Below are positions 16,684-21,178 of a stretch of DNA of 64,000 nt, one piece after another. The translations under genes and the position numbers were made by a program. The stretch comes from Escherichia phage T4, in the sequence record OL964735.1, one strand, 5' to 3'. How positions within the stretch are numbered: the first letter of the stretch is position 1; every line of letters begins with the position of its first letter. The notes under the pieces were generated by a model. The model saw only the letters and a program-made list of their open reading frames with translations. It was not told the DNA's origin and did no database searches.

Positions 16684-16687
16684 CAAT

Positions 16688-16705
16688 GGGGACCGAAAGG
16701 TCCCC
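16688..16705. terminator. Bidirectional hairpin terminator between convergent genes 54 and alt.-3
   Basis: ggggacc-gaaa-ggtcccc stem-loop flanked by A/T runs on both sides. Confidence 0.6.
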
Positions 16706-16711
16706 ATATTT

Positions 16712-17002
16712 TTATTTACGGAATGAAATGAAAGCAGCAACTGAAGCAACTAAACTGTCTTCAATATAAACTTCAATTTTTACAGGAGCTTCTGACTCAA
16801 ATTTACCTGTTACTACACCCTGAAAAATACTTTCAGTCTGTTCTGGCTTTGAAAAATTTTCAGAAGGAAAAATTCCGAACTTTTTATCTGTTCCAAAAAT
16901 TTTGATAAATTCATCGTAAACCGCTTCGTTAAAAGCATTATCAGCAGGAATAACGCCTTCAACTACAAGTTCTTGACCTAAAAAGCGTAAAGAAGATTTC
17001 AT
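16712..17002 (-). CDS. alt.-3: Hypothetical protein (alt.-3 position)
   Basis: 96-aa ORF downstream of the alt-like fragments. Confidence 0.55.
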   Translation of the reverse strand: MKSSLRFLGQELVVEGVIPADNAFNEAVYDEFIKIFGTDKKFGIFPSENFSKPEQTESIFQGVVTGKFESEAPVKIEVYIEDSLVASVAAFISFRK

Positions 17003-17024
17003 TTTGTGTTCCTCATGTTATGTT

Positions 17025-17065
17025 AGTAAGACTACTATAACACAACACGAGGGACTTGTAAACTA
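17025..17065 (-). promoter_or_regulatory. T4 early-type promoter (GTTTAC -35, TATAGT -10) upstream of alt.-3
   Basis: Minus strand GTTTAC, 17-nt spacer, TATAGT; same about 50-bp cassette recurs upstream of alc at 30155-30208. Confidence 0.5.
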
Positions 17066-17238
17066 CATTTTGAACTTTTTAGTACGCGTAATAGGCATGC
17101 GTCGATTTTATACTGTTTCATTGTTTGAAGAGCAGTATCAAAAACAGCATTAATGACACCAATTGGATTTCCACCCAAGTTTTTAAGCTTAACTAATGAT
17201 AGTTTCTCATTAACACCTATCATTACGATATGCATCAT
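17035..17238 (-). CDS. alt.-2: Alt paralog fragment 2 (homolog of Alt residues about 63-130)
   Basis: 67-aa ORF; MMHIV...QYKIDAC...L motifs align with the Alt N-terminal region in this window. Confidence 0.6.
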   Translation of the reverse strand: MMHIVMIGVNEKLSLVKLKNLGGNPIGVINAVFDTALQTMKQYKIDACLLRVLKSSKCSLQVPRVVL

Positions 17239-17420
17239 TTTATCGCCTGGTTTAACGTTTTATTTGTATCACCGCCAGAGGTGTATGTACAAAATCTAAA
17301 TCCAGGAAGTACACTTTCTTCACCGGCTTGAATAGCAAAAATTTGTGGTATTTTATGCTTAGGATTTAAGTTAACAACCGGCGCCGAAGCGCCGTCAAAT
17401 AATTCTGTAATAAGTTCCAT
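17235..17420 (-). CDS. alt.-1: Alt paralog fragment 1 (homolog of Alt residues 1-60)
   Basis: 61-aa ORF; MELITELFD...KIPQIF...PGFRFCTYTSGGDTN matches the Alt N-terminus; its stop overlaps the start of the next fragment (ATGATG). Confidence 0.6.
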   Translation of the reverse strand: MELITELFDGASAPVVNLNPKHKIPQIFAIQAGEESVLPGFRFCTYTSGGDTNKTLNQAIK

Positions 17421-17423
17421 GAT

Positions 17424-19472
17424 TTATCCTTGAACGAACTTGTAAGGCATGTTTGCAATATCTATGCAAGACGCAATAATTCCAAGAGATGATTCTACTT
17501 TCTGTTTAACATTTGATGAAACAAATGATGCAAAGTCAACTCTATCTTCTATATCACCTGTCATTGTAACCAATTCACCAGTTTCCATTAAATGGTCTCC
17601 GTCATAGATTACCGATTCGGTGAGTTCTTCTGTGGTCATAACTTCAGCTTGAATAAGCTTGTTGTTAGTTTTAACTGTTCCATCATTGTAAGATGCATCG
17701 GTTATTTTATTAACTTTGACCATTAATCCACGTGGCAAAATGACTTCCATTTCATTTGAAGGCGCTAAACTTCCACCGGGTAAAACAACATTGACCTTAT
17801 CAGCCCCAGTAATAACCCATCCAATTCCAACTAAATTATCGCTAGAATTTACAAGTCCTTCATCAGTTTTATCAATAGAAACGCTTAAACGCTTTTCGTC
17901 TGGTAAAACACCTATAGATGAATCAGTCATCCAAGTACCAAAAATATTTGGATATAATGATGTTGACACAAAGTTTCTAAAATAAAAAACTCGATTTTTT
18001 ACCATTGCTTCGTATATTGAAGGTAACATTCGTTGTGAACGATACAAAGTAATACCTTTTGGTAATCGTTCACCATTTTTAAAGGCTGAATCTAAATTAT
18101 CAATAGCTTTTTCTATGTCAGATGCTGTCAAAATACTTGTACGCTCATCTGGATTATATAATCCCAAAAGAGCATTATTTATGTCTACATATCCTGAACC
18201 TACGTATTCACGAATTCCGCGTTTTTGCGCTGGTGTGTATTTAGATGAATCTTTATTTTCGACTATAGGATGTAATGACCATCCAGCGGTAAGAGCATAT
18301 CCACGTAATTCTCTTCGAATAATCTTTGTTTTTATTGCATTCCAAGAATTTTGTACTAACTCATTTGCAGCATCTTGGTTTAAATGCGAATGTTTGTTAA
18401 TATTTCTTTCAAACCAAGCACCCTTATATTTTTCTAAAGTATCATCGACGATAGAAGCAATAGTTTCTAAGGTTTTTATTGAAGTAATAGATTCTTTTCG
18501 TAATCTTTCTAAAGCTTTATTTTTTATTTCTGCGTTAATAATGGATTCTTTATCTTCAGGAATTATAGAAGCTTCTCTGAATGCCATCCCAGCTGTAACA
18601 CTGCTAAGAGCATTCTCTAGTGCAAATCCTGAAGTAGAAATTACCGTTAATTCATTAGAATCAGAAATTAAAGGCGCGTCCGCTGGTTTATTTAATTCGG
18701 CCGCTGAAGCCTCAAATTTTTGAAACATTGGTGTTTCAAATCTAGAAGATTCCAATGACTGACTTTGCGCAATTGCTCTACGGGAAATTTTAACTTTAAC
18801 GATTACAGCTTGGTCAGAACGTTTATCATTTTCTTGCGCAATAGATGCTGCAATTGCCTCATTTTTAGTTACTTGAGCCCCAGTATCTTTATTGATATAA
18901 ACATCACCGACCTTCGATTCAACTTTAGTAAAGAGCTCGGTACTAATTTCCGGAACTCCTGGAATGTCTTCTAGTGATACATTTTTGCGATGTATAAGAA
19001 TATATGCATACTTTTTATCGTAATCCCAGAGTTCCTTAAGAAGGACGTATCTACCACCTGAACGACTACGGATAAGTCTATCAGCAATAACTTGAATTTG
19101 TCGAGCTTGGCCAGCAGTTTTAGACTTAAGAATACGGAGCATACAGGCATCAATTTTATACTGGCGCATTGTTTGCATTGCAACAGTAAAAACTGAATTG
19201 ATATAATTAATTGGGCTTGGACCAAGACCTTTTAATTTAGCAATTGAACCTTTAGCAGTTAATGTAAAAGGAACAATATGCATCATTTTATCGCCCATCT
19301 TTAAATCACGATTAGTATCACCTCCAGATGTATAGGTACATAAACGAAAGCCTGGTTGTTCAATTGCATCATCAACATGAACTGAAAAAATTTGCGGTAT
19401 TTTCTTCTTTGGATATAAGTTTGTAATTGGAAGAGTAGTATCTTCGTCAAATAATTCTGTAATAAGTTCCAT
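17424..19472 (-). CDS. alt: Alt ADP-ribosyltransferase (head-packaged)
   Basis: 683-aa ORF with tandem Met at the start (T4 Alt is 682 aa, so the second Met is taken); position between 54 and gene 30. Confidence 0.85.
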   Translation of the reverse strand: MELITELFDEDTTLPITNLYPKKKIPQIFSVHVDDAIEQPGFRLCTYTSGGDTNRDLKMGDKMMHIVPFTLTAKGSIAKLKGLGPSPINYINSVFTVAMQTMRQYKIDACMLRILKSKTAGQARQIQVIADRLIRSRSGGRYVLLKELWDYDKKYAYILIHRKNVSLEDIPGVPEISTELFTKVESKVGDVYINKDTGAQVTKNEAIAASIAQENDKRSDQAVIVKVKISRRAIAQSQSLESSRFETPMFQKFEASAAELNKPADAPLISDSNELTVISTSGFALENALSSVTAGMAFREASIIPEDKESIINAEIKNKALERLRKESITSIKTLETIASIVDDTLEKYKGAWFERNINKHSHLNQDAANELVQNSWNAIKTKIIRRELRGYALTAGWSLHPIVENKDSSKYTPAQKRGIREYVGSGYVDINNALLGLYNPDERTSILTASDIEKAIDNLDSAFKNGERLPKGITLYRSQRMLPSIYEAMVKNRVFYFRNFVSTSLYPNIFGTWMTDSSIGVLPDEKRLSVSIDKTDEGLVNSSDNLVGIGWVITGADKVNVVLPGGSLAPSNEMEVILPRGLMVKVNKITDASYNDGTVKTNNKLIQAEVMTTEELTESVIYDGDHLMETGELVTMTGDIEDRVDFASFVSSNVKQKVESSLGIIASCIDIANMPYKFVQG

Positions 19473-19500
19473 CATATCCTCTCTAGTGTTTATTCTATTC

Positions 19501-19514: not shown

Positions 19515-19532
19515 AAGGCCCGAAGGCCTTTA
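19515..19532 (-). terminator. Hairpin terminator upstream of the alt promoter
   Basis: aaaggcc-cgaa-ggccttt stem-loop. Confidence 0.5.
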
Positions 19533-19718
19533 ATAATCTATTGGTAAGAGAGTACGATATATTTCAAACTTTGGACCTTTTTCATAAGCATCAAATGTTT
19601 CTGTGAATTTATTATAAGCATATGCATCTATAAATTCAATCATGATTTGTGATACAGAAGTAGAAACATCTCCACCTTCTTTTTGAGCCACGACAATTGT
19701 TTCTAAGTAAGCTTTCAT
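19530..19718 (-). CDS. Hypothetical small protein between gene 30 and alt
   Basis: 62-aa ORF; start overlaps the gene 30 stop. Confidence 0.5.
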   Translation of the reverse strand: MKAYLETIVVAQKEGGDVSTSVSQIMIEFIDAYAYNKFTETFDAYEKGPKFEIYRTLLPIDY

Positions 19719-21178
19719 AGACCAGTTACCTCATGAAAATCACCAAATACATCTTCGAATGTATTAGCTTTAGTTTTATCTTCACGTAAACGAATCGCAA
19801 TCGGAAGAAATAATTTAACGTAATCAGTGCGGCCATCAGATTTTAACCAACCGTTGCATTCGCACTCTAGAATTTTTCCAATATAATAATTTTGGTTTTC
19901 CATAATGCGAGTACGGTCAAGTTCATGCGATTTTACACCGGCTTTATCTTTTAAGCCTGAACCAGCATTTACCTTAATTTTTCCACACTCTGACTCAAGA
20001 ATAAATCCACCCGCTTTAGTAGGGTCTTTACGGTGAGGATAAATTCCTACAATTTTTAAATCAACATCAATTACTTCTTTAAATTTATAAAGATTTTTTG
20101 AACGAGCATTTTCCCATAATCCATCGATATTTTTGAGAATAATACCTTCAAGACCTTGGTCAATATACTTTTTATAAATTACCTTAGCTTCATCTAGGTT
20201 ATTTACTACCTGGTTTTCAATTAAAATTACTTTATCATATCCAGATGTCATTTGTTCTAGTTTAGAAAAACGTACATCATATTTCAAACGAAATGCAGGA
20301 AGACTGTATATTTCTACCAACGGGACATAATCCCAGACCTGAAACTTCATGCATTGTGCTTCTTTTTCAGAAATGGTTCCCTTTAAAGATTTATTGGCGA
20401 TTCCATTAGAAGCAGTACGTGATTCAGCTACTTCGGCGAATTCTTTAGCTTTACTGTTTTCAGGATAAGCATCAAAAAGAAAATCTAGGCCTTCTGGCTC
20501 CTTTTTAACTTGCTCATGGTATACCAATTCGCCATCAATCAACACACCTTCTGGATGAATCTGGCGGGCTTCAGCGGTCATTTTAATTAACTCTTCCTTA
20601 AGAAGATCTAATCCTAGATATTCATTACCAGCTCGTGATAAAAGACGAACATCATCTAATTCATCACCTCTAACTTCAGCAAAACACCGAGCTCCATCAG
20701 CTTTTAACTGAGCAAAGGCTGGAAATTTGATATTCTTATTAATGCCTTTTTCATCATAAGAACTTGCGAGCATTTGAGGTTGTTCAGGAATTAAACCTGG
20801 CCAAACTTTGTTTGCAATAGATACTGAAGCACCACATTCAAGGTCTCGCATCATCACTCGACGCAAAACTTCAACATCATCTTTTTTACCATCGGTGATA
20901 TATCCAGTTAATTCCTCAATTGCTGCATTTCCAGTCAATTTCCGAGTAGCTAATGTGAATTCAATGAAGTCAAGCATATCGGTAAGAGTCAACATTCCAA
21001 AACTCTGGGTAGCAATACCAGGTTTAGGCCATTTCTTGATATAATACTGTAACCCACGAGAATAAGTCAGACGATATACTCGTTTAAGCAATTCATTATC
21101 TTTATTCTTTTCAAGAATTGCTTGCTTCTGTTTAGTTGAACCAATAGATGCTATTTCGTTCAGAATTTTAAGAATCAT
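19715..21178 (-). CDS. 30: ATP-dependent DNA ligase gp30
   Basis: 487-aa ORF (T4 ligase is 487 aa); adenylation motif KADGAR. Confidence 0.95.
   Translation of the reverse strand: MILKILNEIASIGSTKQKQAILEKNKDNELLKRVYRLTYSRGLQYYIKKWPKPGIATQSFGMLTLTDMLDFIEFTLATRKLTGNAAIEELTGYITDGKKDDVEVLRRVMMRDLECGASVSIANKVWPGLIPEQPQMLASSYDEKGINKNIKFPAFAQLKADGARCFAEVRGDELDDVRLLSRAGNEYLGLDLLKEELIKMTAEARQIHPEGVLIDGELVYHEQVKKEPEGLDFLFDAYPENSKAKEFAEVAESRTASNGIANKSLKGTISEKEAQCMKFQVWDYVPLVEIYSLPAFRLKYDVRFSKLEQMTSGYDKVILIENQVVNNLDEAKVIYKKYIDQGLEGIILKNIDGLWENARSKNLYKFKEVIDVDLKIVGIYPHRKDPTKAGGFILESECGKIKVNAGSGLKDKAGVKSHELDRTRIMENQNYYIGKILECECNGWLKSDGRTDYVKLFLPIAIRLREDKTKANTFEDVFGDFHEVTGL

Follow-up and report, generated by a model that had tools for sequence, protein, structure and literature searches.

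alt.-1 and alt.-2 of bacteriophage T4: very probably the remains of a second, tandem Alt-type ADP-ribosyltransferase gene

Results

Organization of the alt locus

The window analyzed here is a 64,000-nucleotide stretch of Escherichia phage T4 DNA (OL964735.1). The segment of interest, positions 17035-17420, lies on the minus strand, where the genes are read in the order gene 30 (DNA ligase, 19715-21178), alt.1 (19530-19718), alt, two short open reading frames (ORFs) and alt.-3. Genes 54 and 48 lie beyond alt.-3 on the plus strand and are convergent with it. The features discussed below, with the evidence for each, are as follows.

17424-19475, minus strand: alt, the head-packaged functional ADP-ribosyltransferase (ORF; named alt in T4T; Pfam PF03496)
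17235-17420, minus strand: alt.-1, 61 aa (ORF, BLASTP, T4T annotation, RB14 alignment)
17258-17261, minus strand: frameshift site, a run of four A (A4) which is A5 in intact copies (RB14 alignment)
17035-17238, minus strand: alt.-2, 67 aa (ORF, BLASTP, T4T annotation, RB14 alignment)
17074-17082, minus strand: deletion junction with a single copy of CTAAAAAGT (9-nt overlap of two BLAST segments and junction alignments)
17034-17062, minus strand: early-type promoter of alt.-3 (consensus scan; promoter annotation in phage Lutter)
16712-17002, minus strand: alt.-3, 96 aa, DUF5498 (ORF; Pfam PF17602, E = 1e-64; early protein detected)
16686-16707, no strand assigned: bidirectional hairpin terminator between alt.-3 and gene 54 (9-bp stem with 6 GC pairs, both strands)

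Around the two short ORFs, a 3.15-kb stretch matches Enterobacteria phage T4T (HM137666) at 100% identity and hundreds of Tequatrovirus genomes at 93-98%. The two ORFs correspond to T4 alt.-1 (17235-17420) and alt.-2 (17035-17238) (UniProt P39495 and P39494; T4Tp203 and T4Tp202), from which they differ neither in sequence nor in position. An earlier note, made from the sequence alone, had placed both upstream of alt; in the direction of transcription they sit downstream (3') of it. Alt itself carries the PF03496 ADPrib_exo_Tox domain at residues 375-615 (Pfam, E = 6e-36).

Two annotation details concern this region. The start of alt is a tandem ATGATG (19470-19475, minus strand), which gives 683 aa from the first ATG; GenBank uses the second, at 19472 (682 aa), and the published 'ITE-6' cleavage numbering agrees with the second. 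Over the 451 positions 16990-17440, the T4 composite reference (AF158101.6 / NC_000866.4) and the window disagree at about 2 (99.6% identity), probably through old sequencing errors or differences between stocks; T4T, RB55, RB59 and several resequenced T4 stocks match the window here at 100%.

Likeness of the two ORFs to the N-terminus of Alt

When compared by BLASTP with the adjacent 683-aa Alt ORF, alt.-1 aligned with Alt residues 2-63 (36/62 identical, 58%, E = 2e-22) and alt.-2 with residues 64-118 (34/55 identical, 62%, E = 2e-21). The two alignments are contiguous and follow the same order as in Alt. In DNA, the segment is 68.9% identical to the 5' end of alt over 331 nt (E = 1e-29), and a DNA comparison revealed no further copy of it in the window. 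The ordered match to the Alt N-terminus proposed in the earlier note is therefore sound, with protein and DNA scores far beyond chance, and so is its remark that a stop overlaps a tandem ATG: the TGA of alt.-1 (17237-17235) falls on the ATGATG which starts alt.-2 at 17238. The reach of the likeness had been overstated, as it ends at Alt residue 118 and not at 130.

T4 Alt (P12726), an NAD+:arginine ADP-ribosyltransferase, is thus a paralog of the segment, which matches its residues 2-118 at about 60% identity, the MELITE propeptide included. While Alt is full length, catalytic, detected as a protein and packaged in the head, the segment is devoid of a catalytic domain. No Pfam match was obtained for the 61-aa ORF, the 67-aa ORF or their fused 128-aa form. 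A search of PDB sequences with Alt found no solved relative, so that a role for the N-terminal 115 residues is not assignable from structure.

An intact second gene in related phages

The earlier note had suggested looking for an intact second alt copy in related phages, and RB14 and W143 provide one. Both carry, between alt and alt.-3, an intact gene of 2,058 bp (685 aa) with the product name 'Alt-like RNA polymerase ADP-ribosyltransferase'. These genes (RB14 alt.-2, YP_002854530; W143 QWV60542) are orthologs of the T4 segment, sharing its position between alt and alt.-3. From end to end, the intact paralog shares 41% of its residues with T4 Alt (E = 6e-158), and its PF03496 domain (residues 416-620) lies wholly inside the part which is absent from T4. 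What T4 retains of these 685 residues is approximately codons 1-115, frameshifted, together with the last six codons and the stop. In DNA, the T4 segment matches the opening 348 nt of the RB14 gene and 80 nt upstream of it at 96.5% identity, and the final 20 nt of that gene together with the region downstream at 96.8%.

These values bear directly on the origin of the segment, which had been described as a tandem partial gene duplication. A recent duplication restricted to the 5' part of the alt gene of T4 itself, followed by a frameshift, would account for a likeness limited to the Alt N-terminus in a segment that adjoins alt. It would not account for an identity of 68.9% to T4 alt as against 96.5% to the second gene of RB14 and W143, nor for the last 20 nt of the intact gene still present to the right of the junction, nor for the 9-bp repeat flanking the missing 1,699 bp, which occurs twice in intact copies. 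We regard this origin as refuted by the identity gap and the retained 3' end of the paralog, and assign it practically no credence. The duplicate was, instead, an old full-length paralog, intact in RB14 and W143, which underwent a later internal deletion of 1,699 bp in the T4 lineage.

A 2026 genome paper describes two Alt-like paralogs with 43% identity in Tequatrovirus phages and does no more than speculate on a divergence of function; we found no functional study of the second paralog in the literature.

Two lesions: a deletion and a frameshift

Relative to RB14, T4 is missing a stretch of 1,699 bp which in RB14 is bounded by a direct repeat of 9 bp, CTAAAAAGT. T4 has a single copy of the repeat (17082-17074) where RB14 has two, 1,699 bp apart (L002 3260-3268 and 4959-4967), and the two BLAST segments which align T4 to RB14 overlap by 9 nt on the T4 query. 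The missing part extends from about codon 116 of the paralog to six codons before its stop and includes the entire catalytic domain. Judged from sequence, this is the pattern which a deletion between short direct repeats leaves behind. The converse scenario, in which the short form is ancestral and a 1.7-kb insertion came later, is contradicted by the homology of the long form to Alt over its whole length.

In the second lesion, one A has dropped out of an A5 run, and the RB14 alignment shows A4 at this site in T4 (17261-17258). Restoring this A in silico yields a single ORF of 128 aa, in keeping with the earlier suggestion that one duplicated segment had been split by a frameshift. The loss shifts the frame such that a TGA falls exactly on the internal Met-Met of the paralog. 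Accordingly, alt.-1 joins codons 1-53 of the lost paralog to eight codons which are read out of frame. Both the native ribosome-binding site (AAGGA, 6 nt upstream of the ATG) and the propeptide motif MELITE/L are retained in this ORF, whose residues 1-9 are identical to those of Alt. Residues 1-55 of alt.-2 correspond, in the original frame, to paralog residues from about 61 to 115, while its last 12 residues, SKCSLQVPRVVL, bear no relation to Alt. This tail is read out of frame across the junction and on through the former stop codon and the promoter of alt.-3; since 1,699 is not divisible by three, the frame runs on past that stop.

A change of one base in a homopolymer is a typical sequencing error, and three relatives with the same deletion (SYGD1, SG1 and FL12) do show A5. 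One might thus suppose that the frameshift is an error or a peculiarity of laboratory strains, and that the true T4 gene is a single ORF of 128 aa. The A4 run is, however, found in 18 of the 21 deletion carriers described below, all but the window independently sequenced and two of them metagenome-derived contigs. Moreover, a 451-nt probe matched 12 independent T4, T4T, RB55 and RB59 records at 100%. With A4 recurring in 17 other independently sequenced genomes an artefact can be ruled out, and the chance that the frameshift is spurious is negligible. A programmed frameshift leading to a 128-aa product was also rejected: the +1 shift would take place at AAU-AAA-ACG, which has no recognized slippery or stimulatory element, and half of the carriers have a stop at codon 6.

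Distribution and states of decay

Two probes were used to estimate how common the deletion is. At a coverage of at least 80%, a 141-nt probe across the T4 junction matched 90 phage records, and a probe across the RB14 left breakpoint matched 396 undeleted records, a count which refers to the left breakpoint only. The T4-type deletion is hence present in about one fifth of sequenced relatives, and about four fifths are without it.

We compared 21 carriers in detail, namely the window, 18 GenBank phages and two IMG/VR contigs, the latter being those recovered by scanning IMG/VR with a 31-mer of the junction. The junction is the same in 21/21. The subsequent history of the segment is far less uniform. 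SYGD1 has the deletion alone, and its unsplit 128-aa frame is annotated as a single 387-nt ORF. Ten of the 21 carriers have a stop in place of Glu6 (GAA to TAA at codon 6); in SG1 and FL12 this stop occurs without the frameshift, and T4 is among the carriers which lack it. Further 1-bp losses are seen in the A-run at the junction (F25) and in a T-run (IME537), and the start codon of LH2 has changed from ATG to GTG. Frameshift and codon-6 stop are found in each of their four possible combinations among the carriers (for example, SG1 and FL12 versus T4 and ACG-C40) on an identical junction, which implies either recombination within a few hundred bases or recurrent slippage in the homopolymer.

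As a result of these independent further lesions, no reading frame is conserved across the 21 carriers, and this is the behaviour expected of a pseudogene. The Alt-homologous part of alt.-2 is intact in 20/21, with IME537 breaking the frame and F25 altering only the tail. This retention says little because the sequence divergence is only about 2%. We counted 36 variant alleles in the 21 carriers, of which 25 are synonymous and 11 non-synonymous, too few for a decision of the dN/dS kind. In this small sample, frequent alleles are mostly synonymous, and about half of the rare ones are non-synonymous; the frequent, mostly synonymous alleles probably predate the deletion.

Two of the records with T4-type sequence at this locus (96-98% identity) are named 'Staphylococcus phage SAJK-IND' (MG010123) and 'Pseudomonas phage vB_PSGBLB0006' (PV654520). 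Contamination or a wrong host label is the probable cause.

Transcription, promoter and protein evidence

There is no terminator-like site between alt and the remnant; the first strong hairpin on the same strand is that at 16686-16707, past alt.-3, and it is the likely 3' end of transcripts which pass through the remnant. The hairpin has a perfect 9-bp stem (ATGGGGACC...GGTCCCCAT) and scores as a terminator on both strands. The alt.-3 promoter comprises TTTACA, a 17-nt spacer and a TG-extended TATAGT, with 10 of 12 consensus matches in addition to the TG, and an identical 30-nt sequence bears the annotation 'promoter' in phage Lutter. It is situated inside the tail of alt.-2, 11 nt 3' of the junction, and was spared by the deletion. 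In intact copies, the -35 element of this promoter starts one base past the TAG which ends the second alt gene. The deletion endpoint therefore just spares alt.-3 expression, which in turn limits where such a deletion may end. Mutations which extend the C-terminus of Alt.-3 have been reported to allow T4 to escape from the mRNA-ADP-ribosylating defence CmdTAC (Nature 2024, PMC11618068).

In the time-resolved data of Wolfram-Schauerte et al. 2022 (PMC9697503, Table S2), the RNAs of alt, alt.-1 and alt.-2 are classed as 'middle', and both the RNA and the protein of alt.-3 as early. Alt, Alt.1 (62 aa) and Alt.-3 (96 aa) were quantified as proteins in that study, in which the protein class of Alt.-1 and Alt.-2 is NA and the row for Alt.-1 is zero in 24/24 intensity columns. 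We predicted four tryptic peptides of 7-30 residues for each remnant ORF, among them MELITELFDGASAPVVNLNPK (cleaved form LFDGASAPVVNLNPK), IPQIFAIQAGEESVLPGFR, FCTYTSGGDTNK, NLGGNPIGVINAVFDTALQTMK and IDACLLR. With four peptides per ORF and a single shotgun proteome, the non-detection carries some weight but is no proof.

The possibility that the two ORFs have been kept as functional small proteins deserves consideration here. Alt.-1 might be directed to the prohead or be a competitor of Alt in packaging, and Alt.-2 might be produced by translational coupling at the ATGA. Alt is processed at ITE-6 by the prohead protease gp21 (PMC5694885), and in T4 such N-terminal propeptides direct proteins to the capsid (PMC5694885, PMC9026906). 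Alt.-1 has its native ribosome-binding site and the same first nine residues as Alt (MELITE/LFD), transcripts of alt.-1 and alt.-2 are present, and the alt.-1 stop overlaps the alt.-2 start. Given a good Shine-Dalgarno sequence and co-transcription with alt, some translation of Alt.-1 is plausible. The comparison of carriers is difficult to reconcile with a function, however. The stop found in 10/21 is positioned exactly at codon 6 and destroys the propeptide feature, other carriers have lost the start codon or gained extra frameshifts, and one keeps the fused 128-aa form, such that no single product is conserved. In addition, neither protein was detected even though neighbours of smaller or similar size were. 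We therefore consider retention for function quite unlikely. Equally doubtful is the more specific proposal for T4 itself, that Alt.-1 is translated late from the alt transcript, enters proheads and is cleaved by gp21, serving as a packaged or injected peptide or as a competitor which tunes Alt loading. The earlier note had seen in the segment a possible source of small Alt-related peptides; the codon-6 stop in so many carriers, and a proteome in which Alt.1 and Alt.-3 were detected and neither remnant product was, speak against this. The stump is carried in the alt transcript with no evident stable product, and most likely yields no functional protein.

Discussion

The homology to Alt, the conserved position, the two lesions and the states of decay in relatives combine to make it very probable that positions 17035-17420 are a pseudogene left by a second Alt-type ADP-ribosyltransferase gene, full length and in tandem with alt, which was largely deleted and then frameshifted. 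The term 'decaying paralog', offered earlier as one possibility, describes it well, as the ortholog is intact in RB14 and W143, both lesions can be located and relatives display several stages of decay.

The interpretation is not new. The T4T GenBank entry remarks of both ORFs that 'alt.-1 and alt.-2 together reflect a deletion and further frame shift in the second copy of gene alt'. Among the paralogous duplications of alt listed by Nolan et al. (2006) are T4 alt.-1 and alt.-2. What the present analysis contributes is the precise breakpoints, the 9-bp repeat and the A-run concerned, the location of the promoter with respect to the junction, and the census of decay states. Nolan et al. (2006) also reported full-length and partial alt duplicates in other lineages of more distant T4-like phages (RB49ORF183c, 44RRORF188c and 44RRORF187c), which represent the same kind of tandem alt paralogy as in T4.

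The following course of events would account for these observations. An old tandem duplication of the full-length alt gene produced two paralogs, whose proteins are now about 41% identical, and the second persists intact in many Tequatrovirus phages, RB14 among them, under the name alt.-2 or 'Alt-like'. In the T4 lineage, slippage or illegitimate recombination between the CTAAAAAGT repeats would have removed 1,699 bp, halting 11 nt short of the early promoter which drives alt.-3. We infer that the deletion preceded the frameshift, the subsequent loss of an A from the A5 run splitting the surviving stump of 128 codons into alt.-1 and alt.-2. That the new stop came to lie on the Met-Met of the paralog, creating the ATGATG overlap, would be a matter of chance. 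The stump is still transcribed, at the 3' end of the RNA which begins with alt, and is probably subject to neutral drift.

In itself, the remnant is an ordinary, textbook case of gene loss in a phage, with a deletion at short repeats followed by slippage in a homopolymer, and matters little. Its relevance lies in the use of T4 as a laboratory model, since T4 lacks a fourth ADP-ribosyltransferase which is encoded by about four fifths of its sequenced relatives. Conclusions on the ADP-ribosylation repertoire of T-even phages which are drawn from T4 alone are thus incomplete.

A separate observation concerns the first alt copy in another carrier, phage G2540-3 (MK327944). There, the gene upstream of the remnant is annotated with a length of 327 nt (121284-121610) and not of about 2.05 kb, and may be either broken or mis-called.
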